Below are positions 25,833 through 64,000 of a DNA stretch of 64,000 nucleotides, one piece after another; the stretch's first letter is position 1; each line of letters begins with the position of its first letter. The position numbers and the translations under genes are program-made. The notes below the pieces were generated by a model. The model ran no database searches. It was not told the origin of the DNA and worked only from the letters and a program-made list of their open reading frames with translations. Origin of the DNA: Jatrophihabitans sp. GAS493 (lineage in GTDB: Bacteria; Actinomycetota; Actinomycetes; Mycobacteriales; Jatrophihabitantaceae); NCBI RefSeq assembly GCF_900230215.1, contig NZ_LT907982.1:3827568-3891567 (forward strand), read 5' to 3'.

Positions 25833-25920
25833 CGAATCACTCCTGTCATGGCGAACGTAGCGCTGCCCGACGTGGCAGTTGCTGCCTATCTGAGTATTCC
25901 TACCCAGATAGGCAGCGGAC

Positions 25921-31285: not shown

Positions 31286-32716
31286 ATGCTTTTCTGGCAT
31301 GTACCAGCCCCGAACGAAGCACTGCTCATCTCAGGCTCCAAGCGCGGTTCGGCGGAGTTGCAGTTCCGTATCGTCACCGGTCACGGCACGTTCGTCCCGC
31401 CGGTAATGCAGAAGGCGCGACTGCTGTCGCTGGCCCTGCGCGAGTCCCAGATCATCGAGGATTGCGTTACCCGCCAAGGGGTGCGCCTGACCATTCAGGC
31501 GGTGGCCGCATTCAAGGTCGGCGACGACCATCAGTCCATCGCCAACGCCGCCCGGCGATTCCTCACCGAGCAGGAGCGCCTGGAGGAACTGGTCGGACGG
31601 ATCTTCGCCGGGCACCTACGCTCCATCGTCGGCGCACTCACCGTGGAGGAGTTGATCCGGGAACGCGAGCGGGTGGCACAGGAGGTGAAAGACGGCAGCC
31701 ACAGCGAGATGGAGAAGCTGGGAATCGTGGTGGATGCCCTGCAGATTCAGGAGATCATCGACAAGAGCGGGTACATCACCAACCTGGCCGCACCTCACGT
31801 GGCGGCCGTCGCCAGCGCGGCCCGAATCGCGGCCGCCAAGTCCGATCAGGAGGCCTTCGAGCGAGAGCAGGAGGCGGGCGCACTGAAGGCACTCTACGAG
31901 CGCGACGCCTCGATCAAGATGGCCAGCTACGCCGCTGAGACCGAGAATGCCCGGGCCAAGGCGGCGCAGTCGGGCCCGCTGGCTCAGGCCCAGGCAACCC
32001 AGGAGGTGATCGAGCAGCAGACCGCGCTGGCACGACGCCAGGCCGAACTGGCCGCCCAGCAGCTTGAGGCTGACGTCCGGCGACCGGCCGACGCCGAGGC
32101 GTACAAGCAGCGCACGATGGCCGAGGCGCGGCGGGACCAGGCGAAGTTCGAGGCTGAGGCCGAGGCCTTCCACGCCACGACGCTGGCCGACGCCAACGCC
32201 CGCGCCGTCTCGGTCAAGGCACGGGCCGAAGCGGATGCCGATGCCTATCGCCGCACCGCCAAGGCCGACGCGAGCGCCGCGGCAATCTCGGTCGAGGCCC
32301 AGGCCGAGGCAAACGCCGAGGCGTACCGGACCACTGCGATCGCCGAGGCACGGGCCAAGGCGGTGCAACTCGAAGCCGACGCCGACGCCGAGGCCAACTC
32401 GGTACGGGCCGCGTCCTTGAGAGACGGCAATCAGCAACTAATTGCGGCCAATCATCTGATCGAAGTACTTCCGATGATGGTCGAGGCGGCCGCCAAGGGG
32501 CTGGCCGGGAGCAACCTCACAGTGCTCAACGGCGCGGAGGGACTGGGACAGATCGTCACCGGCTTGGTGGGTCAGGGCCTGGCCATCTTCGACACCCTCA
32601 AGAAGGCGACCGACCACGCCGAGACAGCCGTTCAACGCAGCGAGTCCGGTCCGGCGGTCACCGCCGGACCGGCCTCAATCGAGGCGGCCCCGACGCTGGC
32701 GGCGACTCGCAACTAG
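31286..32716 (+). CDS. Flotillin / SPFH (band 7) domain protein
   Basis: AAGGAG 9 nt upstream of ATG 31286; SPFH core then long Ala/Glu-rich flotillin-repeat coiled coil. Confidence 0.85.
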   Translation: MLFWHVPAPNEALLISGSKRGSAELQFRIVTGHGTFVPPVMQKARLLSLALRESQIIEDCVTRQGVRLTIQAVAAFKVGDDHQSIANAARRFLTEQERLEELVGRIFAGHLRSIVGALTVEELIRERERVAQEVKDGSHSEMEKLGIVVDALQIQEIIDKSGYITNLAAPHVAAVASAARIAAAKSDQEAFEREQEAGALKALYERDASIKMASYAAETENARAKAAQSGPLAQAQATQEVIEQQTALARRQAELAAQQLEADVRRPADAEAYKQRTMAEARRDQAKFEAEAEAFHATTLADANARAVSVKARAEADADAYRRTAKADASAAAISVEAQAEANAEAYRTTAIAEARAKAVQLEADADAEANSVRAASLRDGNQQLIAANHLIEVLPMMVEAAAKGLAGSNLTVLNGAEGLGQIVTGLVGQGLAIFDTLKKATDHAETAVQRSESGPAVTAGPASIEAAPTLAATRN

Positions 32717-50700: not shown

Positions 50701-53700
50701 CCACCTGACTGTCGACCCCACCCGACGGTGCACCGCTGGAGGACTTGCCCGGGGCACCGCTGGCCGACGCGCTGGCGATGGCGGAGTCGACCGAGGAACC
50801 GAAGGCGGAGAAGGCGATCGCCCCACCGGCAGTGATGTTGCGTCCGGTGGTCGAAGTGACGCTGTGCTTGAGCAGGTTGAGAGCGAGACCGACCCCGATG
50901 GAGGCAGTGCTGCCACCGGTGGCCACCGCGCCGGCGGTGGTGGCGGCCCCGGCCGTCTGGCTGGCGTTGGCCGCGAAGGCACCGCTGAGGGCGATGGTGC
51001 CATTGCCCGGCAGCGTTCCGATGGAGGTGGTCGTGGTGACCGTGGAGAGCGTGACCGCGACCGCCGGCGTGATGTCGACCTTGCCTCCGGCAGCGCCCAT
51101 CTTCGCTTCGGTGGTGGCCAGATCTGCCGCCGTCGCCGTGAGCGTGAGGTTGCGGGCGCCGGTGAGCACGATCCCGTCATTGAGCTTGGACGAGGTGAGA
51201 TCGGTGATGAGGTTGAGCGCGACGCTGGCCCCGATGCCGACGCTGGTCGCGGTGACCCCGCCGACGGTCGGCTCGGCGGTGGCCCTCGAGACCGCGTTAC
51301 TGGCCGAGATGATTGAAGCGTCGCCGCCGGTCAGGGTGACGGTGCCGTCGATGAGGGCGGTGGTCGTCTGGTTGACGATGTTCAGGCCGAGCGCGCCGGC
51401 TACCGAGACCTTGCCACCGCCGGCACCGGCCACCGCGTCGGCGCCGTAGGTCGACTGGGTGTCCGGTGCGCCCTGCGGCCGGATGACGCTGGTCACGGTG
51501 GCGCTGACGGTGATGTCGTGGGCAGTGACGCTGTTGTTCCCGGTTGGCAGGGATGCGGTGTTGGTGACGTTGGCCAGGTTGATCGCCACCCCGGCACCGA
51601 TGGTGACGGTGGTGCCCTTGGTGGCTGAGCCGTCCGCACCGGCGGCGGCATCCGTGTTGGCCGAACTGGCCAAAGTGACCAGACCGCCAGAGGTCAGCAC
51701 GAGGTTGGTACCGACCAGAGTGGCCAGCGAACTCGTCGTCGCCAGGTTGACTCCGATCGCCGCGGCAACACTGACCTTCCCGCCGGAGGTCGACGCGGTC
51801 GGAGCGGTCGCCGGGCCCGACCCCTTGCCGCCGTTGGCCGTTGCAGTGGAGTCGGCATTGCTCCGCTCACTCGCGACCTGGTTATCGACACCGGAGCCCC
51901 CGCTGCCCCCACTTCCGCTGTTCTCCGGCGCACCCGCCGCCGACGCACTCGCGATCGCGTTACTGGCCGAACTCCCGAACGCGCTCAACGTCAAGTTCCC
52001 ACCGGCCTTGATCGACCTCGCCGTGGTCGCCGAGACCGCATGATTCGCAATAGTCAACGCCAGGCCAACACCGACCGCAGCCGTCGACGCACCGGTCGCC
52101 GTCGCCCCGGCACTGGTCAATGCACTTGCCGTCTGACTGGCATTGGCGGCGAAGGCACCGGTGAGCGTGAGTAGCGTCCCAGTAGCGATCGTCGCGGAGG
52201 TGGTGACGTTGGAGATCGTGATCGCGACCGCGGGAGTGATGTCGACCTTGCCCCCGGCTGCGCCCATCTTCGCTGCCGTAGTCGCCAGATCGGTAGCAGC
52301 GGCGGTGAGGGTGATGTTGCGGGCGCCGGAGATCGGGATGTTGTCGACGAGGGTCGCCGACGTGGTGTCGGTGATGAGGTCGAGGGCGACGCTGGCCCCG
52401 ATGCCGACGCTGGTCGCGGTAACCCCACTGACGGTCGGGAACGCGGTCACCGTCGAGGCGGCGCTGCTTCCCGCGGTCATCGTCGCGTCGCCGCCGAGCA
52501 GCGTCACCGGCGACGCCACCTGAGCGGTGGTCGTCTGGTTGACGATGTTCAGCGCCAGCGACCCGGCGACCGAGATCTTCCCGCCACCGGCACCCGCCAC
52601 CGACGCCGCGCCATACGTGGACTGGGTGTCGGTTCCGACCGTGGTCTCGGTCGCGCTCACCGTCAGATCATGGGCAGTCGCCGAGTTGCCGGCCGGGAGC
52701 AGAGCAGTGTTCGTCACGTTCGCGAGGTTGATCGCGACGCCGGCGCCGATGGTGACGGTGGTGCCCTTGGTGGCTGAACCGTCCGCGCCGGCGGCGGCGT
52801 CGGTGTTGGCCGACGATGCCAGAGTGAGAATGCCACCAGAGTTCAGAACGAGGTTGGTACCGATCAGAGTGGCCAGCGAACTGGTCGTCGCCAGGTTGAC
52901 TCCGATCGCCGCGGCAACACTGACCTTCCCGCCGGATGTCGACGCGCTCGGTGCAGTTGCCGGGCCCGACCCCTTGCCGCCGTTGGCCGTTGCCGTGGAG
53001 TCGGCGTTGGAGCGTTCGCTCGCGACCTGGTTGTCGACACCGGAGCCCCCGCTGCCGCCGCTGCCGCTGTTCTCCGGCGCACCCGCCGCCGAGGCGCTGG
53101 CGATCGCATTACTCGCCGAGGAACCGAATGCACCGAGCGTCAGGTTTCCACCGGCCTTGATCGACCTCGCCGTGGTCGCCGACACCGAATGATTCGCGAC
53201 CGTCAGAGCCAGACCCACCCCGACTGCCGCGGTCGACGCACCGGTCGCCGTCGCCCCGGCACTGGTCAGGGCGCTGGCCGTCTGCGTCGCGTTCGCCGCA
53301 AACGCGCCGGTGAGGATCAGGACGCCATTGCCCGTCAGCAAACCAAGCGATGCGGTTGTCGTGACGTTGGAGATCGTGATCGCTACCGCCGGGGTGATGT
53401 CGACCTTGCCGCCCGCGGCACCCATCTTGGCTGCCGTGCTGGCCAGGTCGATGGCGGTGGCCCCGAGCGTGACGTTCCGCGCTCCGGTGAGCGTCACGTT
53501 GTCGGGCAGGCTGGCCGAGGTGACGTCAGTGATCAGGTCGAGCGCCACGCTGGCCCCGATCCCGACGCTGGTCGCGGTAACCCCACCGACGGTCGGGAAC
53601 GCCGACACGGTCGAGGCGGCGCTGCTTGCCGCGGTGAGTGTGGCGTCGCCACCGGTGAGCGTGACCGGCCCGGCGACCAGCGCGGTCGTGGTCTGGTTGA

Positions 53701-56700
53701 CGATGTTCAACGCCAGCGACCCGGCGACCGAGATCTTCCCGCCACCGGCACCCGCCACCGACGCCGCGCCATACGTGGACTGAGTGTCGGTTCCGACCGT
53801 GGTCTCAGTCGCGCTGACTGTCAGATCGTGGGCAAATACCTTATTGTTCCCGACCGGCAGCGATGCAGTGTTGGTGACGTTGGCGAGGTTGATTGCCACC
53901 CCGGCACCGATCGTCGCCGTCGTCCCACTGGTGGCCGAGCCGTCCGCGCCGGCCGCGGCGTCGGTGTTCGCCGATGACGCGAACGTCACCAGGGCGCCTG
54001 CCGTAAGCGTCAGCCCGGTTCCAACGAGAGTGGCCAGCGAACTGGTCGTCGCCAGGTTGACTCCGATCGCCGCGGCAACACTGACCTTCCCGCCGGAGGT
54101 CGAGGCACTTGGCGCGGTTGCCGTCCCCGATCCCTTGCCGCCGTTGGCCGTCGCCGTGGAGTCGGCGTTGGAGCGCTCGCCGGCGACCTGGTCGTCCACG
54201 CCCGATCCGCCACTGCCGCCGCTGCCACTGTTCTCCGGCGCCCCTGCGGCCGATGCACTGGCGATCGCATTGCTCGCCGAGGAACCGAACGCGCTCAGCG
54301 TCAAGTTCCCACCGGCCGTGATCGACCTCGCCGTGGTCGCTGACACCGCATGGTTCGCGATCGTGAGCGCCAGGCCAACACCGACCGCCGCCGTCGACGC
54401 ACCGGTCGCCGTCGCCCCGGCACTGGTCAGGGCGCCGGCCGTCTGGCTGGCGTTCGCCGCAAACGCACCCGTCAGGGTCAGCAGCGCACCGGTCCCCACC
54501 GTCGCCTTCGTCGTGACGTTGGAGATCGTGACCGCGACCGCCGGGGTGAGTGCGACCTTCCCACCGGCCGCACCCATCTTTGCTGCATTCGTCGCGAGGT
54601 CAGTCGCTGAAGCGCTGAGGGTGATGTTGCGAGCGCCGGTGATTGGGATGTTGTCGACGAGGGTCGCCGACGTGGTGTCGGTGATCAGGCTCAGGGCGAC
54701 GCTGGCCCCGATGCCGACACTCGTGGCGGTCACGCCCCCGACGGTCGGGAAGGCGGTCACCGTCGAGGCGGCGCTGCTCGCGGCGGTGAGGGTGGCGTCG
54801 CCGCCGAGCAGCGTCACCGGTGAGGCAACCAGGGCGGTCGTGGTCTGGTTGACGATGTTCAGCGCCAGCGACCCGGCGACGGAGATCTTCCCGCCGCCGG
54901 CACCCGCCACCGAGGCCGCGCCATACGTCGATTGGGTGTCGGTTCCGATCGTGGTCTCGGTCGCGCGCACCGTCAGGTCGTGAGCCTTCACAGCGTTGTT
55001 CCCGGCGGGCAGTGACGCGATGTTGGTGACGTTGGCCAGGTTGATCGCCACCCCGGCCCCGATCGTCGCCGTTGTCCCACTGGTGGCTGAACCGTCCGCG
55101 CCGGCCGCGGCGTCTGTGTTCGCCGAGCTGGCGAATGTGACCAGGCCACCAGAGGTCAGCACGAGGTTGGTACCGATCAGAGTGGCCAGCGAACTGGTCG
55201 TCGCCAGGTTGACTCCGATCGCCGCGGCGACGGAGACCTTCCCGCCGGAGGTCGAGGCGCTCGGTGTGGTTGCTGTACCCGATCCCTTGCCACCATTGGC
55301 CGTTGCCGTGGAGTCGGCATTGGAGCGTTCGCTCGCGACCTGGTTGTCGACACCGGAGCCGCCGCTGCCACCGCTTCCGCTGTTCTCCGGCGCACCGCCC
55401 GCCGAGGCGCTGGCGATCGCATTACTCGCCGAGGAACCGAATGCACCGAGCGTCAAGTTGCCACCGGCATTGATGCTGCGAGCAGTCGTCGCCGACACCG
55501 AATGATTCGCGACCGTCAGAGCCAGACCCACCCCAACTGCCGCGGTCGACGCACTGGTCGCTGTCGCCCCGGCACTGGTCAGGGCGCCGGCCGTCTGAGT
55601 CGCGTTCGCCGCAAACGCGCCGGTGAGGAGCAGGACGCCATTGCCCGTCAGCAAACCAACCGATGCGGTTGTCGTGACGTTCGAGATCGTGATCGCGACC
55701 GCCGGGGTGAGGGCGACCTTGCCGCCGGCGGCACCCATCTTCGCTGCTGTGCTGGCGAGGTCGATCGCCGTGGCTCCGAGCGTGACGTTCCGCGCTCCGG
55801 TGAGCGTCACGTTGTCAGGGAGGCTGGCCGTGGTCACGTCGGTGATCAGGTTCAACCCAACCGATGCACCGATACCGACACTGGTCGAGGTGACCCCACC
55901 GGCGGTCGGGAAAGCAGTCACCGTTGAGGCGGCGCTGCTCGCGGCGGTGAGCGTGGCGTCGCCACCGGTGAGCGTGACCGGCCCGGCGACCAGCGCGGTC
56001 GTGGTCTGGTTGACGATGTTCAGCGCCAGCGACCCGGCGACCGAGATCTTCCCGCCACCGGCACCCGCCACCGAGGCCGCGCCATAGGTGGATTGGGTGT
56101 CGGTTCCGACCGTCGTCTCAGTCGCACTCACCGTCAGATCGTGGGCAAATACCTTATTGTTTCCGACCGGCAGCGATGCGGTGTTGGTGACGTTGGCGAG
56201 GTTGATCGCCACCCCCGCCCCGATCGTCGCGGTAGTGCCGGAGGTCGCGGAACCATCGGCCTTCGCCGACGCATCCGTGTTCGCCGAGCTAGCGAGCGTG
56301 ACCAGCCCACCGGATGTCATTACGAGGTTGGCACCGAGCAGGGTGGCCAGCGAGGTCGTGGTCGCCAGGTTGATGCCGACCGCGGCGGCAACACTGACCT
56401 TGCCCCCCGACGTCGACGCGCTCGGCGTCGTCCCGGTGCCAGATCCCTTGCCGCCGTTCGCGGTCGCCGTGGAATCGGCGTTGGACCGTTCCGCCGCGAC
56501 CTGATTGTCAACGCCGGATCCCGAACCACCACCAGCACCGCTGTTCTCCGGAGCACCACCCGCCGACGCACTCGCCGACGCTGACGAGCTCGACGAACCG
56601 AAAGCGCTCAGAGTTAGCGCGCCACCAGCGGTGATGCTGCGAGCGGTAGTCGCTGCGACCGAATCGTTCGCAATATTGAGGGCAACACCAACACCCACCG

Positions 56701-59700
56701 CCGCGGTCGAGGCGCCAGTCGCCGTCGCACCCGCCGTCGTTGAGGAGGACGCGGTCTGCACCGCATTCGCCGCGAACGCACCGGTCAGCGTGAGCAGAGT
56801 TCCCGTGCCCACGGTGGCGCTCGTGGTCACGTTGCCGATCGTCACCGCGACCGCCGGAGTCAACGCGACACTGCCACCAGCCGCGCCCATCTTCGCCTCA
56901 GTGGTCGCTGAATCAGTCGCGGTCGCCGACAGGGTCACGTTCCGGGCACCAGTCAAGGCCACACCGTTGGGAATGGAGGCAGTGGTCGTATCGGTGATCA
57001 GGTTCAAACCAACCGATGCACCGATACCGACACTGGTCGACGTGACACCACCGGCGGTCGGGAACGCCGTCACAGTCGACGAAGCATTGCTGGCCGCGGT
57101 CACGACCGCATCGCCACCGGTCAGCGTCACTGTCGAACCGACCAGAGCCGACGTGGTCTGGTTGACGATGTTCAACGCCAACGATCCGGCGACCGAGATC
57201 TTCCCGCCACCCGCACCGGCCACCGAACCCGCACCATACGTCGACTGGGAGTCAGCGCCGACAGTTGTTTCCGTCGCGGAAACGGTCAGGCTCTTCGCCT
57301 TCACAGTGTCCCCGGCCGGAGCCACCGCAGAGTTAAGTACATTCGCCAGGTTGATCGCCACCCCGGCACCGATCGTCGCCGTCGTCCCACTGGTAGCCGA
57401 ACCGTCCGCCTTCGCCGACGCATCGGTGTTACCCGACGACGCCAACGTCACCAGACCACCAGAGGTAAGGATCACGTTGGCACCGAGAATCGTGGCCAGC
57501 GAAGAGGTCGTCGCCAGGTTGATCCCGACCGCCGCGGCGACCGACACCTTCCCACCCGACGTGGACGCACTCGGCGTCGTCCCGGTGCCAGATCCCTTGC
57601 CGCCGTTCGCGGTCGCCGTGGAATCAGCGTTGCTTCGCTCGGCCGCGACCTGATCATCAACACCAGAGCCAGACCCACCACCAGCACCGCTGTTCTCTGG
57701 AGCACCACCCGCCGAGGCACTCGCCGACGCTGACGAGCTCGACGAACCGAACGCGCTCAGAGTCAATGCGCCACCGGCAGTGATGCTGCGAGCGGTAGTC
57801 GCAGAAACCGAATCGTTCGCAATATTGAGCGCAACACCAACACCCACCGCGGCGGTCGAGGCGCCAGTCGCGGTCGCACCAGCGGCCGTTGAGGAGGACG
57901 CGGTCTGCACCGCATTCGCCGCGAACGCACCGGTCAGCGTGAGCAGAGTTCCCGTGCCCACGGTGGCGCTCGTCGTCACGTTGCCGATCGTCACCGCGAC
58001 GGCCGGCGTGAGGGCGACCTTCCCGCCGGCCGCGCCCATCTTCGCCTCAGTCGACGCCACATCCGTCGCGGTCGCCGACAACGTGACGTTGCGAGCACCA
58101 GTCAACGCAACTCCGTCGGCGATGCTGGCCGTGGTCGTATCGGTGATCAAGTTCAACCCAACCGAAGCCCCGACGCCGACGGTCGTCGACGTGACACCGC
58201 CGGCGGTCGGGAACGCCGTCACCGTCGACAACGCACTGCTGGCCGCCGTCACGATCACATCGCCACCGGTCAACGTCACCGTCGAACCGACCAGAGCCGA
58301 CGTGGTCTGATTGACGATGTTCAACGCCAACGATCCGGCGACCGAGATCTTCCCGCCACCAGCACCCGCGACCGACGCCGCGCCATAAGTCGACTGGGTG
58401 TCAGCGCCGACAGTTGTTTCCGTCGCGGAAACGGTCACGCTCTTCGCCTTCACAGTGTCCCCGGCCGGAGCCACAGCGGAGTTGAGTACATTCGCCAGGT
58501 TGATCGCCACCCCAGCACCGATCGTCGCCGTCGTCCCACTGGTAGCCGAACCATCCGCCTTCGCCGACGCATCCGTATTCGCCGACGACGCCAACGTCAC
58601 CAGCCCACCAGAGGTAAGGATCACGTTGGCGCCGAGAATCGTGGCCAGCGAGGTCGTGGTCGCCAGGTTGATCCCGACCGCCGCGGCGACCGACACCTTC
58701 CCACCCGACGTCGACGCCGACGGCGTAGCCGAAGTACCCGATCCCTTACCGCCGTTCGCGGTCGCCGTGGAATCAGCGTTCGACCGCTCCGCCGCGACCT
58801 GATCATCAACACCGGAACCAGACCCACCACCAGCACCACTGTTCTCCGGAGCACCACCCGCCGACGCGCTAGCCGAGGCTGCCGACCCCGACGAACCGAA
58901 AGCGCTCAGAGTCAGCGCGCCACCAGCGGTGATGCTGCGAGCGGTAGTCGCAGAAACCGCATCATTCGCAATATTCAGCGCAACACCAACACCAACCGCC
59001 GCAGTCGAGGCACCAGTCGCCGTCGCACCCGCCGTCGTCGACGACGACGCCGCCTGCACCGCATTCGCCGCGAACGCACCGGTCAGCGTGAGCAGAGTTC
59101 CGGTCCCGACTGTCGCGCTTGTGGTCACGTTGCCGATGGCGACCGCGACTGCGGGCGTCAACGCGACACTGCCACCAGCCGCACCCATCTTCGCCTCAGT
59201 CGACGCCACATCCGTCGCAATCGCACTCAACGTGACATTGCGAGCGCCGGTCAGCGCCACACCATTGGGAATGGATGCAGTGGTCGAGTCGGTGATCAAG
59301 TTCAAACCAACCGATGCACCGATACCGACACTGGTCGACGTGACCCCACCGGCGGTCGGGAACGCCGTCACCGTCGACGAAGCACTGCTGGCCGCGGTCA
59401 CGACCGCATCGCCACCGGTCAGCGCCACTGTCGAACCGACCAGAGCCGACGTCGTCTGGTTCACGATGTTCAGCGCCAGCGACCCGGCGACCGAGATCTT
59501 CCCGCCACCGGCACCCGCCACCGAACCCGCACCATACGTCGACTGGGAGTCAGCGCCGACAGTTGTCTCCGCCGCCGAGACCGTCAGACTCTTCGCCTTC
59601 ACAGTGTCCCCGGCCGGAGCCGCCGCGGAGTTGATGACGTTGGCCAGGTTGATCGCCACCCCGGCACCGATCGTCGCGGTAGTCCCGGAGGTGGCCGAAC

Positions 59701-62700
59701 CATCGGCCTTCGCCGACGCATCCGTGTTCGCCGAGCTAGCGAGCGTGACCAGCCCACCGGAAGTCATTACGAGGTTGGCACCGAGCAGGGTGGCCAGCGA
59801 GGTCGTGGTCGCCAGGTTGATGCCGACCGCGGCGGCAACACTGACCTTGCCCCCCGACGTCGACGCACTCGGCGTCGTCCCGGTGCCAGATCCCTTGCCA
59901 CCATTCGCCGTCGCCGTGGAATCGGCGTTGGACCGTTCCGCCGCGACCTGATTGTCAACGCCGGATCCCGAACCACCACCAGCACCGCTGTTCTCCGGAG
60001 CACCACCCGCCGACGCACTCGCCGACGCTGACGAGCTCGACGAACCGAAAGCGCTCAGAGTTAGCGCGCCACCAGCGGTGATGCTGCGAGCGGTAGTCGC
60101 AGAAACCGAGTCATTCGCAATATTCAGCGCAACACCAACACCCACCGCCGCGGTCGAGGCGCCAGTCGCCGTCGCACCCGCCGTCGTCGACGACGACGCG
60201 GTCTGCACCGCATTCGCCGCGAACGCACCCGTCACCAACAGCAACGCACCAGTGCCGACCGTCGCCTTAGTCGTCACGTTCCCGATCGTCACCGCGACCG
60301 CCGGCGTCAACGCGACACTGCCACCAGCCGCGCCCATCTTCGCCTCAGTCGACGCCGCATCCGTCGCAATCGCACTCAACGTGACATTGCGAGCGCCGGT
60401 CAGCGCCACACCGTTGGGAATGGATGCAGTGGTCGAGTCGGTGATCAGGTTCAAACCAACCGATGCACCGATACCGACACTGGTCGACGTGACACCACCG
60501 GCGGTCGGGAACGCAGTCACAGTCGACGAAGCACTGCTGGCCGCGGTCACGACCGCATCGCCACCGGTCAGCGCCGCTGTCGAACCGACCAGAGCCGACG
60601 TCGTCTGGTTCACGATGTTCAACGCCAACGAGCCGGCGACCGAGATCTTCCCGCCACCAGCACCGGCCACCGAACCCGCACCATAAGTCGACTGGGAGTC
60701 AGCGCCGACAGTTGTTTCCGTCGCGGAAACGGTCAGGCTCTTCGCCTTCACAGTGTCCCCGGCCGGAGCCACCGCAGAGTTAAGTACATTCGCCAGGTTG
60801 ATCGCCACCCCGGCACCGATCGTCGCCGTCGTCCCACTGGTAGCCGAACCGTCCGCCTTCGCCGACGCATCGGTGTTACCCGAAGACGCCAACGTCACCA
60901 GACCACCAGAGGTAAGGATCAGGTTGGCACCGAGAATCGTGGCCAGCGAAGAGGTCGTCGCCAGGTTGATCCCGACCGCCGCGGCGACCGACACCTTCCC
61001 ACCCGACGTGGACGCACTCGGCGTCGTCCCGGTGCCAGATCCCTTGCCGCCGTTCGCGGTCGCCGTGGAATCAGCGTTGCTTCGCTCGGCCGCGACCTGA
61101 TCATCAACACCAGAGCCAGACCCACCACCAGCACCGCTGTTCTCTGGAGCACCACCCGCCGAGGCACTCGCCGAAGCTGACGAGCTCGACGAACCGAACG
61201 CGCTCAGAGTCAATGCGCCACCGGCAGTGATGCTGCGAGCGGTAGTCGCAGAAACCGAATCGTTCGCAATATTGAGCGCAACACCAACACCCACCGCGGC
61301 GGTCGAGGCACCAGTCGCGGTCGCACCAGCGGCCGTTGAGGAGGACGCGGTCTGCACCGCATTCGCCGCGAACGCACCGGTCAGCGTGAGCAGAGTTCCC
61401 GTGCCCACGGTGGCGCTCGTCGTCACGTTGCCGATCGTCACCGCGACGGCCGGCGTGAGGGCGACCTTCCCGCCGGCCGCGCCCATCTTCGCCTCAGTCG
61501 ACGCCACATCCGTCGCGGTCGCCGACAACGTGACGTTGCGAGCACCAGTCAACGCAACTCCGTCGGCGATGCTGGCCGTGGTCGTATCGGTGATCAAGTT
61601 CAACCCAACCGAAGCCCCGACGCCGACGGTCGTCGACGTGACACCGCCGGCGGTCGGGAACGCCGTCACCGTCGACAACGCACTGCTGGCCGCCGTCACG
61701 ATCACATCGCCACCGGTCAACGTCACCGTCGAACCGACCAGAGCCGACGTGGTCTGATTGACGATGTTCAACGCCAACGATCCGGCGACCGAGATCTTCC
61801 CGCCACCAGCACCCGCGACCGACGCCGCGCCATAAGTCGACTGGGTGTCAGCGCCGACAGTTGTTTCCGTCGCGGAAACGGTCACGCTCTTCGCCTTCAC
61901 AGTGTCCCCGGCCGGAGCCACAGCGGAGTTGAGTACATTCGCCAGGTTGATCGCCACCCCAGCACCGATCGTCGCCGTCGTCCCACTGGTAGCCGAACCA
62001 TCCGCCTTCGCCGACGCATCCGTATTCGCCGACGACGCCAACGTCACCAGCCCACCAGAGGTAAGGATCACGTTGGCGCCGAGAATCGTGGCCAGCGAGG
62101 TCGTGGTCGCCAGGTTGATCCCGACCGCCGCGGCGACCGACACCTTCCCACCCGACGTCGACGCCGACGGCGTAGCCGAAGTACCCGATCCCTTACCGCC
62201 GTTCGCGGTCGCCGTGGAATCAGCGTTCGACCGCTCCGCCGCGACCTGATCATCAACACCGGAACCAGACCCACCACCAGCACCACTGTTCTCCGGAGCA
62301 CCACCCGCCGACGCGCTAGCCGAGGCTGCCGACCCCGACGAACCGAAAGCGCTCAGAGTCAGCGCGCCACCAGCGGTGATGCTGCGAGCGGTAGTCGCAG
62401 AAACCGCATCATTCGCAATATTCAGCGCAACACCAACACCAACCGCCGCAGTCGAGGCACCAGTCGCCGTCGCACCCGCCGTCGTCGACGACGACGCCGC
62501 CTGCACCGCATTCGCCGCGAACGCACCCGACACCAACAGCAACGCACCAGTACCAACCGTCGCCGAAGTACTGATGTTGCCGATCGTCACCGCGACCGCA
62601 GGAGTGATGGCAACCTTGCCGCCAGCCGCGCCCATCATGGCGACCGTGGTGGCGAGATCCGCACTCACCGCGGAGAGCGTCACGGCGCCGGCTCCGGTCA

Positions 62701-64000
62701 GGGTCGCCGCGTTACCGAGCGCCGCGACCGTGGTGTCGGTGATCAGGTTGAGCGCAACTGAGGCACCGAAGCCGAGGCTGCCGGTGGTCGTCGTCCCGCC
62801 GCCGGTCGGTAGTGCCCGGGCCGTGGCCATCGCGGTCGAGCCGGCGGTGATGGAGATGCTGCCTGCCGCCGTCACCGTCGCCGCTCCGTCGACCCGTGCT
62901 GCGGTCGTCAGGTTGACGATGTTCAGCGCCAGCGACCCCGCGACCGACACTCCCCCGCCACCGGCCCCAGAGGAGGCCAGCGCACCGAACATGTGACCGC
63001 CGGCCACCGGCTGTGGGCTGACACCCGGAGTGAGGGTCGCCGAGACGATGAGCCCGGCGGCCGAGCTGACCGAGTCACCAGCCGGCAACACGGCGGTGTT
63101 GGTGACATTGGCCAGGTTGATCGCGACGCCGGCGCCGATACCGAGCGACGCAGCGCCGGTCGCCGACCCGTCGGCCACGGCGCCGGCGGTCGTTCCGGCG
63201 CTGGATGCCAGCGTGATCACCCCGGCCGCACTGAGCGAGAGACCGGTACCGACGAGTGTCGCCGAGGAACTTGTCGTGGCCAGCGTGATCCCGATAGCGG
63301 CGGCGACCGAGACCTTCCCCTTCGAGGTTGAAGCTGAGGGCGTCGCCGTCGATCCTGTCCCACCTCCGGTTGGTGCGAAGGCGTCGGCCACGCTTCGGTC
63401 GCCGGCCACCTGACCGTCCACCCCTCCGGCCGGCGCGCCCGCTGAGCCGTCACCGGGGGCGCCTCCGGCCGAGGCGGTGGCCGACGAGATGTCAGTCGAG
63501 GAGCCGATCGCGATGAGCGCCAACGCGCCACCCGATTTGATCGACCGGGCGGCGGAGGCGAGGACGGAGTGATGAGCGAAGGTCAATGCCGTGGAGACTC
63601 CGGCCGACGCGCTGCCGGCCTGGGCCGCACCGGTCGCGGTCGTCGTCACGCTCGCCGTCTGCGTTGCCTTGGCGGCGAATGCCCCGCCGAGGGTCAGCGT
63701 GCTCGCGGCCGGCCCTCCGACACTCGTGCTCGTCGTGACGTTGGAGGTGCTGATCGCGACTACGGGTGCGAGGGCCACATCCGCGGAACTTGCGCCATTC
63801 GTGGCCTGGGTAGTCATGGCGTCGGCCGCGGTGGCCGTCAGGGTGACGCCCCGGGAGCCGATCAGCACAGCGCCGTCGCCGATTGAAGCGGCTGTTGTGT
63901 CGTTGATGATGCCGAGTGCGAAGGAGGCGCCGATGCCGGTCTCGGCGGTGCCGGGGCCGCTGTCGGCCGAGAGCGCCGAAGTCATGGTGGTCGCCGCCGA
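32675..64000 (-). CDS. Giant (>10,436 aa; N-terminus outside window) cell-wall-anchored repetitive surface protein / fibrillar adhesin with LAXTG sorting signal
   Basis: Single uninterrupted minus-strand reading frame of 31.3 kb while all other frames are fragmented; still open at window edge (..SAATT-MTSAL..). Composition A/G/T/S/V-rich with GxGxAxNxxN-type solenoid repeats, Big_1 and Ig-like domains, C-terminal LAATG-hydrophobic-RRQRRGRLD. Confidence 0.85.
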   Translation of the reverse strand, partial: SAATTMTSALSADSGPGTAETGIGASFALGIINDTTAASIGDGAVLIGSRGVTLTATAADAMTTQATNGASSADVALAPVVAISTSNVTTSTSVGGPAASTLTLGGAFAAKATQTASVTTTATGAAQAGSASAGVSTALTFAHHSVLASAARSIKSGGALALIAIGSSTDISSATASAGGAPGDGSAGAPAGGVDGQVAGDRSVADAFAPTGGGTGSTATPSASTSKGKVSVAAAIGITLATTSSSATLVGTGLSLSAAGVITLASSAGTTAGAVADGSATGAASLGIGAGVAINLANVTNTAVLPAGDSVSSAAGLIVSATLTPGVSPQPVAGGHMFGALASSGAGGGGVSVAGSLALNIVNLTTAARVDGAATVTAAGSISITAGSTAMATARALPTGGGTTTTGSLGFGASVALNLITDTTVAALGNAATLTGAGAVTLSAVSADLATTVAMMGAAGGKVAITPAVAVTIGNISTSATVGTGALLLVSGAFAANAVQAASSSTTAGATATGASTAAVGVGVALNIANDAVSATTARSITAGGALTLSAFGSSGSAASASASAGGAPENSGAGGGSGSGVDDQVAAERSNADSTATANGGKGSGTSATPSASTSGGKVSVAAAVGINLATTTSLATILGANVILTSGGLVTLASSANTDASAKADGSATSGTTATIGAGVAINLANVLNSAVAPAGDTVKAKSVTVSATETTVGADTQSTYGAASVAGAGGGKISVAGSLALNIVNQTTSALVGSTVTLTGGDVIVTAASSALSTVTAFPTAGGVTSTTVGVGASVGLNLITDTTTASIADGVALTGARNVTLSATATDVASTEAKMGAAGGKVALTPAVAVTIGNVTTSATVGTGTLLTLTGAFAANAVQTASSSTAAGATATGASTAAVGVGVALNIANDSVSATTARSITAGGALTLSAFGSSSSSASASASAGGAPENSGAGGGSGSGVDDQVAAERSNADSTATANGGKGSGTGTTPSASTSGGKVSVAAAVGINLATTSSLATILGANLILTSGGLVTLASSGNTDASAKADGSATSGTTATIGAGVAINLANVLNSAVAPAGDTVKAKSLTVSATETTVGADSQSTYGAGSVAGAGGGKISVAGSLALNIVNQTTSALVGSTAALTGGDAVVTAASSASSTVTAFPTAGGVTSTSVGIGASVGLNLITDSTTASIPNGVALTGARNVTLSAIATDAASTEAKMGAAGGSVALTPAVAVTIGNVTTKATVGTGALLLVTGAFAANAVQTASSSTTAGATATGASTAAVGVGVALNIANDSVSATTARSITAGGALTLSAFGSSSSSASASASAGGAPENSGAGGGSGSGVDNQVAAERSNADSTATANGGKGSGTGTTPSASTSGGKVSVAAAVGINLATTTSLATLLGANLVMTSGGLVTLASSANTDASAKADGSATSGTTATIGAGVAINLANVINSAAAPAGDTVKAKSLTVSAAETTVGADSQSTYGAGSVAGAGGGKISVAGSLALNIVNQTTSALVGSTVALTGGDAVVTAASSASSTVTAFPTAGGVTSTSVGIGASVGLNLITDSTTASIPNGVALTGARNVTLSAIATDVASTEAKMGAAGGSVALTPAVAVAIGNVTTSATVGTGTLLTLTGAFAANAVQAASSSTTAGATATGASTAAVGVGVALNIANDAVSATTARSITAGGALTLSAFGSSGSAASASASAGGAPENSGAGGGSGSGVDDQVAAERSNADSTATANGGKGSGTSATPSASTSGGKVSVAAAVGINLATTTSLATILGANVILTSGGLVTLASSANTDASAKADGSATSGTTATIGAGVAINLANVLNSAVAPAGDTVKAKSVTVSATETTVGADTQSTYGAASVAGAGGGKISVAGSLALNIVNQTTSALVGSTVTLTGGDVIVTAASSALSTVTAFPTAGGVTSTTVGVGASVGLNLITDTTTASIADGVALTGARNVTLSATATDVASTEAKMGAAGGKVALTPAVAVTIGNVTTSATVGTGTLLTLTGAFAANAVQTASSSTAAGATATGASTAAVGVGVALNIANDSVSATTARSITAGGALTLSAFGSSSSSASASASAGGAPENSGAGGGSGSGVDDQVAAERSNADSTATANGGKGSGTGTTPSASTSGGKVSVAAAVGINLATTSSLATILGANVILTSGGLVTLASSGNTDASAKADGSATSGTTATIGAGVAINLANVLNSAVAPAGDTVKAKSLTVSATETTVGADSQSTYGAGSVAGAGGGKISVAGSLALNIVNQTTSALVGSTVTLTGGDAVVTAASNASSTVTAFPTAGGVTSTSVGIGASVGLNLITDTTTASIPNGVALTGARNVTLSATATDSATTEAKMGAAGGSVALTPAVAVTIGNVTTSATVGTGTLLTLTGAFAANAVQTASSSTTAGATATGASTAAVGVGVALNIANDSVAATTARSITAGGALTLSAFGSSSSSASASASAGGAPENSGAGGGSGSGVDNQVAAERSNADSTATANGGKGSGTGTTPSASTSGGKVSVAAAVGINLATTTSLATLLGANLVMTSGGLVTLASSANTDASAKADGSATSGTTATIGAGVAINLANVTNTASLPVGNNKVFAHDLTVSATETTVGTDTQSTYGAASVAGAGGGKISVAGSLALNIVNQTTTALVAGPVTLTGGDATLTAASSAASTVTAFPTAGGVTSTSVGIGASVGLNLITDVTTASLPDNVTLTGARNVTLGATAIDLASTAAKMGAAGGKVALTPAVAITISNVTTTASVGLLTGNGVLLLTGAFAANATQTAGALTSAGATATSASTAAVGVGLALTVANHSVSATTARSINAGGNLTLGAFGSSASNAIASASAGGAPENSGSGGSGGSGVDNQVASERSNADSTATANGGKGSGTATTPSASTSGGKVSVAAAIGVNLATTSSLATLIGTNLVLTSGGLVTFASSANTDAAAGADGSATSGTTATIGAGVAINLANVTNIASLPAGNNAVKAHDLTVRATETTIGTDTQSTYGAASVAGAGGGKISVAGSLALNIVNQTTTALVASPVTLLGGDATLTAASSAASTVTAFPTVGGVTATSVGIGASVALSLITDTTSATLVDNIPITGARNITLSASATDLATNAAKMGAAGGKVALTPAVAVTISNVTTKATVGTGALLTLTGAFAANASQTAGALTSAGATATGASTAAVGVGLALTIANHAVSATTARSITAGGNLTLSAFGSSASNAIASASAAGAPENSGSGGSGGSGVDDQVAGERSNADSTATANGGKGSGTATAPSASTSGGKVSVAAAIGVNLATTSSLATLVGTGLTLTAGALVTFASSANTDAAAGADGSATSGTTATIGAGVAINLANVTNTASLPVGNNKVFAHDLTVSATETTVGTDTQSTYGAASVAGAGGGKISVAGSLALNIVNQTTTALVAGPVTLTGGDATLTAASSAASTVSAFPTVGGVTATSVGIGASVALDLITDVTSASLPDNVTLTGARNVTLGATAIDLASTAAKMGAAGGKVDITPAVAITISNVTTTASLGLLTGNGVLILTGAFAANATQTASALTSAGATATGASTAAVGVGLALTVANHSVSATTARSIKAGGNLTLGAFGSSASNAIASASAAGAPENSGSGGSGGSGVDNQVASERSNADSTATANGGKGSGPATAPSASTSGGKVSVAAAIGVNLATTSSLATLIGTNLVLNSGGILTLASSANTDAAAGADGSATKGTTVTIGAGVAINLANVTNTALLPAGNSATAHDLTVSATETTVGTDTQSTYGAASVAGAGGGKISVAGSLALNIVNQTTTAQVASPVTLLGGDATMTAGSSAASTVTAFPTVSGVTATSVGIGASVALDLITDTTSATLVDNIPISGARNITLTAAATDLATTAAKMGAAGGKVDITPAVAITISNVTTSATIATGTLLTLTGAFAANASQTASALTSAGATATGASTAAVGVGLALTIANHAVSATTARSIKAGGNLTLSAFGSSASNAIASASAAGAPENSGSGGSGGSGVDNQVASERSNADSTATANGGKGSGPATAPTASTSGGKVSVAAAIGVNLATTSSLATLVGTNLVLTSGGLVTLASSANTDAAAGADGSATKGTTVTIGAGVAINLANVTNTASLPTGNNSVTAHDITVSATVTSVIRPQGAPDTQSTYGADAVAGAGGGKVSVAGALGLNIVNQTTTALIDGTVTLTGGDASIISASNAVSRATAEPTVGGVTATSVGIGASVALNLITDLTSSKLNDGIVLTGARNLTLTATAADLATTEAKMGAAGGKVDITPAVAVTLSTVTTTTSIGTLPGNGTIALSGAFAANASQTAGAATTAGAVATGGSTASIGVGLALNLLKHSVTSTTGRNITAGGAIAFSAFGSSVDSAIASASASGAPGKSSSGAPSGGVDSQVATERSNATDTDTANGGGGTGTSASPSASTSDGKIAVAAAVALNIADVSATATLPASLTLIAGGVVSLRTSENVDGTVKSDGTAVKAEDVGVGAAVSINLVTITNQASIGRLSKVTSNGFDAESTMTNLNGDTVHTFDVEADAGAGSKDVGVAGAVSLNLVTDRTEAFVTTTATVGAGTGDISLVAQNLRSDSAKAKADASIGGGGKVGVGASVAINVLTTNITRAEVEDNASLTGGRNVTLLATSAEPVVNQVTAGSAGSSVAVSPAVGINITTNVTTARLGAPGTGLLAATGDIQIRATHTGSSTITGDAKAASDSVAVGAIIAVNVVTDTTLAATARNLSGASVAITATTQDSGAANVTASAQGSQKGSGSNSDQQASSQVNNTPSTSGQTGTLPSASDNVASGNSQASSQSGNSGSGVGVGAAVSVNWVTDSNTASVAPGLSILSTGAVIVAATNETDATGKAMGIALKLGSTNIGAAVGLNVASVTNSGSIGTGATITGSSLVVSAVTPDRAENDFVVWGIAAAGGDGDASVAGSVGVQVITFHSTASIGSGSHVTLTGALTMNSTAPLGLQNIAASGALSLGGDAGVGAAVAVNIIDISTRTYIDSSTTAVTRIDAGGAMSLNAAQSISPLVPDIPKITPPAVSSVAIAGAAGTSGVAIGGSVIVDVINLATQAYIAAAALVNQAGPATPGQSLSITSSDQTSLVNLAGAVALSGGDVGVGLGLVVDVINKDVRSFIGQGAHVTVGGDIAIGATAGEKVTEISVDAAASTEAAVAGSFIVLVMNQGSGEGDVPPGTRAYIEGNGSQSTIVHAGGNVALAASDDASDLGLYAGNVTIGGSAGVGISSSILIRSGYVDAYVGAGSDIEAKGNSGLSVRASQNEGIKIFAIGGSAGGDAGVAGSATVDVLDDSTHAHVDSGVTVNGNNSGASSTNGIALAATDTTTILGIAGALAAGGSAGIGAGVDVETLSKDTQAWIATGVVANANGNVTVDSTSSEKVTSVSASVSLGGSVAVSVNAAVSVFTIVTKAFIGGLCEAGTPAACAGFRSTINTHGSARVSANEQLTLAVVAGNLSVSGSAAVGAAGAVPIVNKTTTAFIGDDSTVNALATNDASLTVATGTHDEQYTDIRFAPTTAVESDHRTLNLGYLHGFTEGQQVIYDNGGGQNIIGLTGGTPYYVHVISPTEVQLSATSGGPAITLTAPARGGESQRLVATNSAVTPQNSSPYFTPSLDVVGNSINLPYDMTLNTGDAVVYGSGSEAPIGGLVDGHTYYAIVTGAHTIQLAATKCQATGTCSGIAQQAITLNAAAAGAGRSHSIVPSGSTPSGNAAQVTGIHTVLNGSRSGFRGIAVTASNSDDISGVGISGAISAGASVSVGGSVNVVTSNTDAFIGKFATINAANSGASTSQSVLVAAGNDYHQLMVSGVLAVGLYAGVAPSASVGLIHLNTNAYIGAQSTVNAAQDIVVNASAKDSIVSVALAGGGGIAGIAGAVSVISLNTHTYADTGFGDTITAGNNLLVAARDDTKVIMVAGGVAGGIVGIGAGVGVTLATKDTQAFISAGSTVDALATQPGVTLAAIYAGQLNGNNFVTAPFNGLAVQAGSSEDIFGLTLGLAGGFVGVAGGIGITLLHATTIAFIDSNAQAPTLVNTKAGAGAAQSVNVSAADFTKTLTIAGALAGGAVGIAGGVDVGVVDTTTKAYLGLYATVHARNNVGVYALAAKDIASYAVSVGGGFVGAAGSVSVWTIGTQPNPNYSNGPGPSTNGLSSNGDPQGEADTQATGSGGFQGILSGTSGSSTSRSNTLIKNHTADATSSIQSNAPTAGQISGGVTNPGLPEGTVAAISQGVTIVAGGSVAVAALENFGFAGLAGSAAGGFVGIGLSLVIANVDSHADASIGSNASISAGGDVAVIASTNETSSGLAFGGQAGAVAVGGQIAVINDHSDQNAHIDDNATIPQAGGSVTVAAIGNRSVTPSAIGGQIGAIAVGAAVAVASIDGNTTATIGNVSIGSASPVGAVNVSANSTISAPAIAYSIGVGAVGVGAGVAITTIEGTTAASFGGHGPVAGSVSVTAGGTNTVSAFVLNVKAGGFAAGLTIATATENRTTAASFTTFANIAAGGAVTVGATSQNHATATTPGGTAGGITIGALLPTATVNGSTTATVDGQITASGSITVSAAGQNQADAEATIISISVGGLSGVDADAEVTSQAAIRATVNKSSTIASTGLVSVNAASTPDAAGNADYARTRIFSGAGGGISIGVFIAQAIVAAAVTAQLNGNVSNSGSVKVSAGGGNRADGQTKSFALGAFGVSVSGIQALIAGSAVTDATILGGTVTSSGAVAVSATSHNTATADTDTAGVGIISAGGTIPIATIAGRTHAEFGDVLKSQGLSVAATATNNATATSEIIEVGFIVGGYAGSDAEITSAAAVDALVDDSSTTVNAGAGTVSVTATSTNRATATPSQVAVGGYTLSALTPTAKVGAHTNAAFNGGVTTSGAFLVGANGQNVAIATAKVASFHLAGGSGVIVDAEILARADVTASVASSATITAAGAVTVQAVLTADGSGHQNFASASAESASGGLIDAGVYIGTATVAGAVTATLNGAVTASTGITVKAAGANDAEASTKSVGIGLFTISVAGVAASVTADAAVSAQIGSRSISSSGAIGVFANSGNTANASTDAANIGLISGSVSIPTATVAAATLASSGAPIGSAGSFTVSAGGNNSASATSAIVAIGLITGGGAGADAEVLSSASVTAAVTATATTVHVSGAISVTATSTDHATATPSQLAAGAINLVALLPTAKVAAPTSASYSGGTTSSGDFTVSASGQNTAVATVDVKNFGIVGITGVSVDAEVLASAGVSATVAASTALTSTGTVLVSATLTPDGAGHQNYAAAKVSSTSGGLITGGIFFAKAQVGAAVAAQLNGAVLASHQATVKAAGANTVEGTTLSIGIGLGSISGSAVDAEVLNGANVSATTGGGALASSGLVNVLANGTNTATALSDSVNGGFIAGSASIPIGRTAGAFTAEFDGRLSGATGLIVKAVGASTASATSGAQGGGFISAHDSSPTATVDAASVTSAVIGAGALLNAPSAAISVIANATNSATASGGSVNGGLATVDVSNPAANDFGITRAKMLGSAHGATNAAPGAGSISVQASGSDASTALISDTSVAGVGVSNAGATATTTTTVEADLASSGSVITTVGDISLGAASSPVATSASRSTSAGILLNIVGNNSTINNTPTVNVNIAPNAQIYSGGSITVTAQQNTTAPPPSGNTGFFDASTGVNTGTNTITFTAPHGLLTGNTVTYTNAGNPNVGGLTNNAQYNVFVVNANSVRLGSTFGGANIDPATSTISFGRMVGPTFVPLNHNLHEGDLVIYEVPSGGSAIPGLTPGGLYRVHVVDDSHIQLFDPNSSTAVINLTGANVSGNTINATNPFGNGTPVTYTAPTPIAVFSSALVSINVDGSNNPIYPVQNNSDNRILIHNHGLATGTAVVYDGGTGPIGGLTNGVTYYVININANQIQLADSLCHATGTCVDGDNNPIPQQALPLTPDKSAAGAAIKQGLYAPGQQPIGGLADGGRYYVVNATGTSFQLASTPNGSPLTLDGTGRVGASTIKLAPVAIGVGTGDQNLIVDLTATSSGTQQLAPVGITGPAAGGGVLSTATVTGSGGGFINSTHANTNATETVNVNVEVGANTSLTTVGSITITTNSSTGVSANSSNGGGGLISVGSAQAKATATGNTTVKLDSGTNLTAGDSVKIAPLNFVQAISSANASGGGLGAGVSAYSKSTDNYTTLTDIAGSITAGNNINIEAHSAVNGNISTSAEGGGLGVDAHAGDDGDATNNLDVTGTTTVHLESGTHLTADNVQLTAQTDSITAHNNGHTHASALGAASDAEATITANTGQQVQIDGATKIVGYETVGIAANALNLSFAANTDAHCSCFGGDTNTTENITYNSDSDVTANATAIIRTGHLDVEVVQNVTNWNTDHDNDGAVFDGGGNHGSSHNNAQRTIHWNADVYLHTPDPQLIVDSSGKIVKLYGITVKDDLGNSYDLGDTIPSGRIIEVQDIVNNGGATALFNASVSQTEGGSTAPASLIDGSQGKFVQQNTFDFVKIYNYSSRALTTHIINVVNLNNPGATVTVQLNQIPFTFHVGPPIFTPTAVDIENFAGSVADSDVTIDGLIYNPIGSTVVNNGRGNIFAGPDSPLIETNTLVLEAPAGSIGILFNLFGISIRIPIPVLLVQSDYIVDNVDPTRFISLVAEALGNVVLDITSILRANQTPFAPTLGPIHAGGNIDIVVNDSAWGNDAPQWPSEAIQVNLHNPPDLVTNLPGTGLYRVFFRPDQPFVDNDPVLMVFGNVLTPIDSTYNFTDLSAGNNINVRHVATGTQVTFVAHTNVDATLFALGNPALQLSQSDQVGEIDLFTNGRITDTETVSDLRVGTITSTNNDVVLIAADDPASIFDVAATDDGVARVTGNNITLLALHGGIGFVTPTVNYLEIHSSNAAVGALLALANSGIFIEQTQGNLNVALADSLTSDIALVTDAGSILDNHSASGASIVARSIDLIAHGGSIGTYTSDASGDVRINSSSSATGRLYAYADGFGGDVIGAVALPGGGIYLTETDGALNVLRAQSVHGDVRLRVPFATGRTDADLTLLGSGSTLDGSVVLALGLIAAASGEVRLLVGNDVETAVSSLIFAATVWIYGEYLEPVTGPAVGSTMHFRGIVVGHPTNIFGGRGDDNFYFDQTLLGGQTNVYGATPNTGNCPPTNVSTNCGLSPDGNDFFQVDRLQTMTGKHVDTSGDQYSGQLVRDSLMLNGELGDNTYVVNTWGSDAAATHDYRIDVLNTGPLGGRNTLTVNGADGPDVFLMRGSSFIPDQPQAQSPAFVALLHGTYTDVLGRKRQDVERINYDEHINSRLTVNGLGGDDFFAMDDNSAITTINGGDGNDTFDVGQLYYLPRVAPYVLPEDQFATTQTNIGFLSRGNRFPTTIYGGAGNDTFLVYSNKAELRLEAGTGNDLFTFITSALIDPTTGRPMVDTFATNLLPLPVRIAVPVYNIDAPVSVDGGTGASQLYVLAVGDAHDILTTPTGVFGQGLNISYQNLHQPGGGPFVIAASTLLTGLSSLLTPIISGVLATGGSTGQITIGTVAEANTPTVVPVTVIDQGSGSIIITETGGSTAVTTNGATDSYTVRLATPPKATVYVNISAAFATGTPFAQVSIDGGLTWSDNVVLVFAAGETGPKTVLVRAITGAVTAPGATVETISHSSQSGDDRYNHVSIRNVYVNLLGASQPGVIITQPDGGVSVLAGTPPQGITGSYTVVLAAAPAAGTTVTIALGFDPTTLTVTSADARFDAATQSITFDSTNWFLPVTITVAATLAPPPPTQPTGGTANPALVLDPNGKNVITHTVTSTDPAYQAYAKALKTPLRVVVNLLTVKSGLIVSPPALVVTAGDQVGSQLTLRLSAAPTGPVTYRINTGGRFVIYDPCSCDGRFVAAGGDNLAAVTFDATNWFTPVVLNVVALAPASSTADPFQPIATIAPSSANRYGPILNPADNAAVDALFCVNVRTGRAALNVASAPGVACGLTPARVPVVLPNELGGGAPAHITAQAGTPQSTLVGTAFGAPITALVTDSYGNPEPGVTVVFTAPVGPRGLTVPTATFGNATAVETEVTGLDGLATSSILTASTKSGTYSVVGVISGAGAVSPTVSSAVFALTNLAGAAVTVVATTGTFQIALVGRPFRLPLTATALDQYGNPVPGAQVLFTAPATAPSGTFPGGAITLLVVTDASGNAVASGFIAGLSTGSYYVIATLVPPVVLVAPTPPVVGGGVLTPPVDSTGSSSFLLVNASLPKILLQPKAVSVRAGQVVTFRATAGGFPGPTYVWQKSKDGGRTWISGADPSGDALLTFVATKGENGYLYRVVFTNGAGSVFSLPVKLTVISPTTHFAVEALTITPPKARPSAKTENTGALAATGVSARQSTGLALLLLVLGAGLLVASRRQRRGRLD
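32678..32791 (-). other. C-terminal cell-wall sorting signal: LAATG motif + hydrophobic segment + positively charged tail
   Basis: Last 38 aa: LAATGVSARQSTGLALLLLVLGAGLLVASRRQRRGRLD, the tripartite architecture of sortase substrates; LAXTG is the class E sortase motif. Confidence 0.7.
57472..59080. repeat. Copy A of a perfectly duplicated ~1.6-kb segment (3447-bp higher-order repeat = 3 basic units)
   Basis: Plus-strand ORFs 57780..58310, 58398..58802, minus ORFs 57472..57720, 58621..58857 are amino-acid identical to those at +3447. Confidence 0.8.
60919..62530. repeat. Copy B of the perfectly duplicated ~1.6-kb segment
   Basis: ORFs 61227..61757, 61845..62249, 60919..61167, 62068..62304 identical to copy A. 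Confidence 0.8.

Follow-up and report, generated by a model that had tools for sequence, protein, structure and literature searches.

A stretch of 64,000 nucleotides (nt) from the chromosome of the soil actinobacterium Jatrophihabitans sp. GAS493 (the window, whose positions serve as coordinates throughout) contains a giant minus-strand gene, the product of which is predicted to be a β-solenoid fiber that probably carries a sortase-type cell wall anchor. Within the tandem array of long units encoded by this gene, two segments lying 3447 nt apart are nearly identical, and in part perfectly so. We consider it likely that this repeat arose very recently, when misaligned units of the array underwent homologous recombination.

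The gene corresponds to one open reading frame (ORF) of 10,436 codons plus stop (32675–63985, minus strand). The ORF is still open at the window end; hence, the true N-terminus of the protein lies beyond position 64000. Guanine plus cytosine (GC) content is 86% at third codon positions and 60% at positions 1 and 2. A preliminary description of the same DNA had read the repeated region as several independent ORF fragments on both strands. All of these fragments overlap the single minus-strand frame, which replaces that picture with one giant gene, and plus-strand ORFs such as 57780–58310 and 61227–61757 are shadow frames, as is usual in high-GC coding DNA. The N-terminal part of the window protein is occupied by an array of at least 12 tandem units (49766–63619, minus strand; residues 123–4740), the basic unit being 383 amino acids (aa) or 1149 nt long. 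The twelve full units, which measure 383–392 aa (1149–1176 nt) each, run from U1 (62462–63619) to U12 (49766–50917), and U1 is preceded by a partial unit, U0 (63623–63961), all on the minus strand.

The window was aligned to a copy of itself shifted by 3447 nt, which is exactly three times the basic unit of 1149 nt. This comparison revealed a block of 2881 bp in two minus-strand copies that differ at 75 positions (97.4% identity) and contain zero indels relative to each other. The N-proximal copy (59647–62527) consists of U2 and U3 in full, preceded by the terminal 66 nt of U1 and followed by the initial 517 nt of U4; in the C-proximal copy (56200–59080), the complete units U5 and U6 are flanked in the same way by the terminal 66 nt of U4 and the initial 517 nt of U7. 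At one end of the block lies a perfect tract of 1217 bp (57864–59080, partner 61311–62527), which adjoins a near-perfect extension (57240–57863, partner 60687–61310) with 4 mismatches in 624 nt (57863, 57728, 57475, and 57437), three of them synonymous and one a Val/Leu exchange. Along the lower copy, identity amounts to 96.9% in 56200–56740, 82.7% in 56741–57000, 96.2% in 57001–57239, 99.4% in 57240–57863, and 100% in 57864–59080. The block ends abruptly at 56200 and at 59080, and from 59081 onward identity drops to 69% and then to approximately 35–55%.

These data bear out the repeat and the offset given in the preliminary description, which had reported a perfect repeat of about 1.6 kb, but the perfect run is only 1217 bp long. 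The alignment of 57472–59080 with the upper copy contains three mismatches (57475, 57728, and 57863; 99.8% identity), and while the upper limit of the interval had been placed correctly to within 3 nt, near-identity continues below its start, down to 56200. It had further been proposed that three units were duplicated en bloc without a mismatch. In length, the perfect tract corresponds to only about 1.06 units and the 2881-bp block to about 2.5, and the arrangement is one of two 2881-bp copies, unevenly diverged, with 566 unlike bp between them.

The block and its surroundings form a mosaic. The 566-nt spacer between the copies (59081–59646, minus strand; positions 518–1083 of U4) is 61–63% identical to the corresponding part of U1 and 70–76% identical to that of U7, its closest relative being U3 (90–92%), whereas U4 and U1 end in the same 66 nt. 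U7 is chimeric, with an initial 517 nt that belong with U2–U6 and are 96–97% identical to U4 and a remainder that groups with U8–U11, being 88–95% identical to U9 and only 70–76% identical to U2–U6. The divergent patch inside the block (56741–57000, minus strand; 82.7% identical to its partner, 60188–60447) is another element of this mosaic, in that the tail of U3 is here some 97% identical to the tail of U4 instead. Since no other exact direct repeat in the window exceeds 87 nt and other unit pairs are 53–95% identical, a chance origin of the repeat is excluded. The mismatches are also unevenly spread, with four in 624 nt and none in the adjoining 1217 nt (Poisson P of approximately 4e-4; the probability that all four fall into the first 624 of the 1841 nt is approximately 0.013). 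Of the 75 mismatch sites, 68 are such that other units contain either both of the alternative bases or neither of them.

The relative age of the block can be judged from the units themselves. At the DNA level, U2/U5 are 100%, U3/U6 95%, and U4/U7 83% identical; identity is otherwise 85–90% among U2–U6, 70–85% with and among U7–U11, and 53–63% for U1 and U12. Protein identity exceeds DNA identity across all unit pairs, and the ratio of nonsynonymous to synonymous divergence (dN/dS) is 0.11–0.25 for nearly all of them. Synonymous divergence (dS) is 0.3–1.4 (0.3–0.5 for neighboring units that are 85–90% identical in DNA), except for U2/U5 (0) and U3/U6 (0.13). Purifying selection has maintained an old array, of which U2/U5 and U3/U6 are the one young part. 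Because equally constrained pairs show dS values of 0.3–1.4, the absence of synonymous differences between U2 and U5 reflects recency and not selection. A chunked search of the window against itself detected further tracts of at least 93% identity at offsets of 1149, 2298, 2313, and 4596, and these patches at one-, two-, and four-unit offsets point to past exchanges in the array. In 52094–56716, U7 and U9 as well as U8 and U10 are closer to each other than to their neighbors, with patches of at least 93% identity between 53001–53917 and the segment 2313 nt further on; this older two-unit periodicity suggests an earlier two-unit block event. A regular higher-order repeat of three units was also considered and was rejected, as the block is present in only two copies and the older part of the array shows a periodicity of two units.

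What was observed comprises the position and identity profile of the repeat, its in-frame arrangement and mosaic composition, purifying selection on the units, and an assembly built from long reads; from these we infer how the block arose, how many events were involved and in which order, and any change in unit number. A stretch made up of the last 66 nt of a unit, two whole units, and 517 nt of a third would have been copied to the corresponding place in the array at a distance of three units (3447 nt), and this copying was most likely non-reciprocal and resembled gene conversion. At least two events in the three-unit register probably occurred. The older one would have covered 2.9 kb, now 96–97% identical at the C-proximal end (56200–56740), and the latest one 1.2–1.8 kb, now 99.8–100% identical, while smaller exchanges in other registers would have overwritten one patch. 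Non-reciprocal copying between misaligned units would leave a block whose two copies are separated by native U4 sequence and whose far end falls within a chimeric unit, as observed. The uneven mismatch density in turn indicates more than one event or patchy repair. Taken together with the 82.7% patch, the tracts at other offsets, and the shared states at 68 of 75 sites, it argues for repeated, patchy exchange and not for one event followed by point mutation.

Several points weigh against this interpretation. Both the sequence identity and the copy number derive solely from the assembly, and the mean subread length of approximately 3.5 kb, computed from the published totals of 914.4 Mbp in 259,823 subreads (PMC7498423), is near the repeat spacing. 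A metagenome scan for population variants yielded only relatives at 36–47% identity. The data, from the array of one strain, are compatible with either conversion or a gain of units, and homoplasy at third codon positions, which are rich in GC, could account for part of the shared states seen at the mismatch sites.

The strongest competitor of conversion-like exchange is a clean tandem duplication in which one unequal crossover doubled three units at once, with all imperfections attributed to later decay. The offset of exactly three units fits such an event, as does U4, which resembles a hybrid junction unit with a U7-like head and a U1-like tail, and the periodicity of U7 with U9 and U8 with U10 shows that earlier block duplications have taken place in the array. 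However, a single crossover predicts 3447 identical nt and one switch point in U4, whereas 2881 nt are observed together with 566 nt that match neither parent; a native-looking U4 spacer of this kind is what a conversion tract predicts. The crossover would also depend on sequence similarity between U1 and U7 at the junction, yet the two units share only about 67% identity there, and the divergence within the block, which ranges from 0 to 17%, does not correspond to one age. The duplication would have to be rescued by at least one additional overwriting event, and we regard it as unlikely.

An error of assembly or consensus is a considerably weaker contender. In this scenario, HGAP or Quiver would have homogenized the tracts or miscounted the units. 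The proximity of the mean subread length to the spacing of 3447 nt speaks in its favor, and homologous giant genes do break assemblies, one 13-kb contig (L004) containing a gene fragment only. The preliminary description had warned of short-read collapse, a concern that does not apply here, as the GAS493 genome was assembled with HGAP from PacBio RS reads (SRX3048269) at 156x coverage into one 4.88-Mb scaffold (PMC7498423). The ambiguous stretch is just 1.2–1.8 kb long and its flanks differ by 3–40%, so that reads of at least 3 kb can anchor the tract, and misplaced short reads would presumably be outvoted by correctly anchored long ones. Reads that bridge one tract of 1.2–1.8 kb should be plentiful, and reads across the whole 6.3-kb structure should be fewer. 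The reading frame, moreover, is intact over 31 kb, which argues for good consensus quality, and the edges of the tracts are in frame and respect the unit register. We therefore consider an artifact very improbable.

That the identity is held by selection, on an embedded DNA or RNA element or on identical protein modules, and does not stem from a recent event has next to nothing to recommend it: purifying selection does act on the protein sequence of the units, but such constraint leaves synonymous differences, which equally constrained pairs have and U2/U5 lack, and in the repeat region an Rfam scan found no matching family and an inverted-repeat scan found no notable inverted repeats or other embedded elements.

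The recombination that would have produced the two tracts may also be favored by their presence. As direct repeats 1149 codons apart, they are placed such that an exchange between them deletes or adds exactly three units in frame, and we infer that they are now the best substrate in the giant gene for in-register exchange. Further in-frame gain or loss of 1149 codons seems plausible from the arrangement of the repeats; it would take the window part of the protein from 10,436 aa to 9287 or 11,585 aa, and three units (1149 aa) would correspond to roughly 20 nm of fiber if each unit forms about 15 solenoid coils. In other bacteria, recombination between direct repeats of a few hundred base pairs that lie kilobases apart is frequent enough to be measured. 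In Deinococcus radiodurans, for example, 438-bp direct repeats separated by 1.5–10.5 kb undergo deletion at a frequency of approximately 6.5e-4, with or without RecA, and one mismatch lowers the frequency of repeat deletion about fivefold (PMC4627823). The potential for RecA-mediated expansion and contraction had been pointed out before; the substrate for recombination is indeed there, in the form of direct repeats that agree perfectly over 1.2 kb (near-perfectly over 1.8 kb) and are spaced in frame, but, given the RecA-independent deletion in D. radiodurans, “RecA-mediated” is too specific to be a safe assumption.

These findings describe ordinary, familiar repeat evolution in a poorly annotated family of giant proteins and not a new system. 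They show concerted evolution within a giant bacterial gene in a clean case that can be dated, in which an old, selected array contains one freshly homogenized stretch, and they flag a place in the GAS493 reference at which copy number matters to anyone relying on the gene model.

At its C-terminal end, the giant protein carries a sorting signal (32678–32791, minus strand) that consists of an LAATG motif (32777–32791), a hydrophobic stretch, and the basic tail RRQRRGRLD. The protein ends in TGALAATGVSARQSTGLALLLLVLGAGLLVASRRQRRGRLD directly before the stop codon and so combines an LAXTG motif with a hydrophobic segment and a positively charged tail. The signal gives a weak partial match to NF058583 LAXTG. 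LAXTG-type signals are used by the class E sortases of Actinobacteria (PMC5148588), and the giant protein, judged by this C-terminus, is probably anchored covalently to the cell wall. No sortase gene was seen in the annotated part of the window. When the whole 10,436-aa window protein was searched against Pfam, nothing was detected in the repeat region, and the only hit was a sub-threshold immunoglobulin-like domain (Ig_3, 23 bits, below the Pfam cutoff of 30) directly upstream of the anchor (32924–33148, minus strand). The C-terminal half of the ORF contains a second, far more diverged super-repeat at approximately 41400–44300 (minus strand), with a period of 975 nt (325 aa) and 50–66% DNA identity.

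The related strain Frankineae bacterium MT45, which has 84% average nucleotide identity with GAS493 (PMC7498423), possesses a syntenic ortholog (LT629697, approximately 2,073,500–2,111,460) called as a protein of 12,636 aa, next to SPFH and NIF3 genes and without a Pfam match. The last 2177 aa of this ortholog are 87.6% identical to the window protein, and the LAATG sorting signal is kept.

The repeat units match NF012206 (LktA_tand_53, “tandem repeat-containing filamentous protein”), for which the curated cutoff is 50 bits. The match reached 100.1 bits over 16 stretches in aa 1–3600 and 103.3 bits over 12 stretches in aa 3601–7000; a single unit scored 41.5 bits, which is below the cutoff. 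Autocorrelation shows a sub-period of 53–58 aa, the repeat of NF012206 being about 53 aa long. AlphaFold modeled one unit with a predicted local distance difference test (pLDDT) score of 83.3 and a predicted template modeling (pTM) score of 0.80, as an almost entirely β-structured solenoid with one 52-residue loop of low confidence and with strands reaching both unit ends; a model of two units was poor (pLDDT 50.6). The predicted fold is that of a right-handed β-helical repeat shaft as found in TpsA proteins and filamentous hemagglutinin (FHA), and the array is thus predicted to form an FHA-like β-solenoid. A Foldseek search of the unit model against the PDB returned no significant match. Every 383-aa unit contains a segment of about 52 aa with pLDDT below 50 (residues 54–105 in U5, window positions 58700–58855). 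Within this segment lie the motifs that are best conserved across the family, GVDxQVAxERSNAD and TSGGKVSVAAA, which are nearly invariant in nine aligned units and recognizable in relatives that are only 49–66% identical.

A search with a profile of the unit retrieved 1190 representative proteins at E≤1e-3, many of them 5000–7800 aa long with 5–16 full-length units, and the 383-aa super-repeat defines a large family without a Pfam model. The distant member P0110 has an N-terminal domain for two-partner secretion (TPS; PF05860), and other members start with an LExRxLL-type motif. It appears that the shaft module is combined with more than one kind of export or anchoring system. Based on the NF012206 match, the fold, and the wide distribution of homologs, the unit represents a widespread FHA-like solenoid segment, here in a probably wall-anchored protein. 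The family, with its 383-aa β-solenoid super-repeats in TPS exoproteins and, here, in a putatively sortase-anchored protein, may be a more interesting object than the repeat itself.

In a profile scan of genome contigs, only two distant relatives were found, L001 and L002. In L001, from an uncultured Actinomycetota genome, a fully open homologous stretch of 21 kb has units that are 66% identical to those of GAS493, a period of 1143 nt, and perfect tracts of up to 602 nt between neighboring units. L002, L004, and L005 keep a period of 1.08–1.19 kb, and their longest exact tract does not exceed 59 nt. Occasional homogenization on a diverged background hence seems to be typical of the family. The top representative match, P0091, lies on a 13-kb contig with approximately 70% DNA identity and without identical tracts. 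L004 (JBDIAB010000066.1, 13,038 bp) lies entirely within a homologous giant gene, the frame of which runs off both ends of the contig, and many database homologs are partial proteins on contigs of 1–2 kb; assemblies commonly break inside genes of this giant-protein family.

The rest of the window is made up of chromosomal housekeeping genes (pepA, lpdA, a Ser/Thr kinase gene, glnE, glnA, nadE, NIF3, and a gene for an SPFH protein), and a plasmid BLAST search gave no match. The 3′ ends of the giant ORF and of the convergent SPFH/Band_7 gene overlap by 42 nt (32675–32716), and an identical 42-nt 3′ overlap exists in MT45 (L003, 6494–6535). The window also encodes the bacterial class A ribonuclease (RNase) P RNA (25916–26309, minus strand; 308 bits in Rfam) and an RNase H/histidine-phosphatase fusion protein (27183–28481, minus strand) that is kept in MT45.

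Compared with known systems, the GAS493 protein resembles FHA/TpsA-type β-helical exoproteins (FhaB, HxuA, EtpA, and HMW1) and NF012206 proteins in its fold and sub-repeat. It differs from them in that it ends in an LAXTG signal, predicted to serve covalent wall attachment of the Gram-positive sortase type in a monoderm, and in that neither a TPS domain (no PF05860 match in the available 10,436 aa) nor a TpsB partner was seen, the N-terminus lying outside the window. Its resemblance to the substrates of class E sortases (PMC5148588) lies in the LAATG motif, hydrophobic segment, and basic tail at the extreme C-terminus, a combination kept in MT45; known substrates such as the chaplins, however, are small, whereas the GAS493 protein exceeds 10,000 aa.

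A third comparison concerns the Periscope proteins, which Whelan et al. (2021, PMC8201768) present as sortase-anchored or secreted surface proteins, such as SasG, Rib, Sgo_0707/SHIRT, Esp, and CdrA, in which long and highly similar DNA repeats recombine and thereby vary the length of a stalk. The GAS493 protein shares with them the surface-display signal (LAATG, hydrophobic stretch, and basic C-terminal tail), a long in-frame tandem array combined with a C-terminal sortase-type anchor, and DNA tracts of high identity that could drive intragenic recombination and so alter the length of an elongated structure. Unlike in the Periscope proteins, only one pair of units is identical, most of the array being old and diverged. 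In addition, the unit is a continuous β-solenoid of 383 aa and not a globular domain of 80–130 aa, and the host is a free-living soil actinobacterium, for which variation in repeat number between strains is hypothetical. It is conceivable, if doubtful, that the gene encodes a variable-length “periscope” of a new structural type, that is, a wall-anchored β-solenoid fiber tuned in steps of three modules (1149 aa, approximately 20 nm); cultures would then hold subpopulations with shorter and longer fibers, generated by recombination between the identical tracts. The Periscope class is the closest concept available for the GAS493 gene, and the fit is a partial one.

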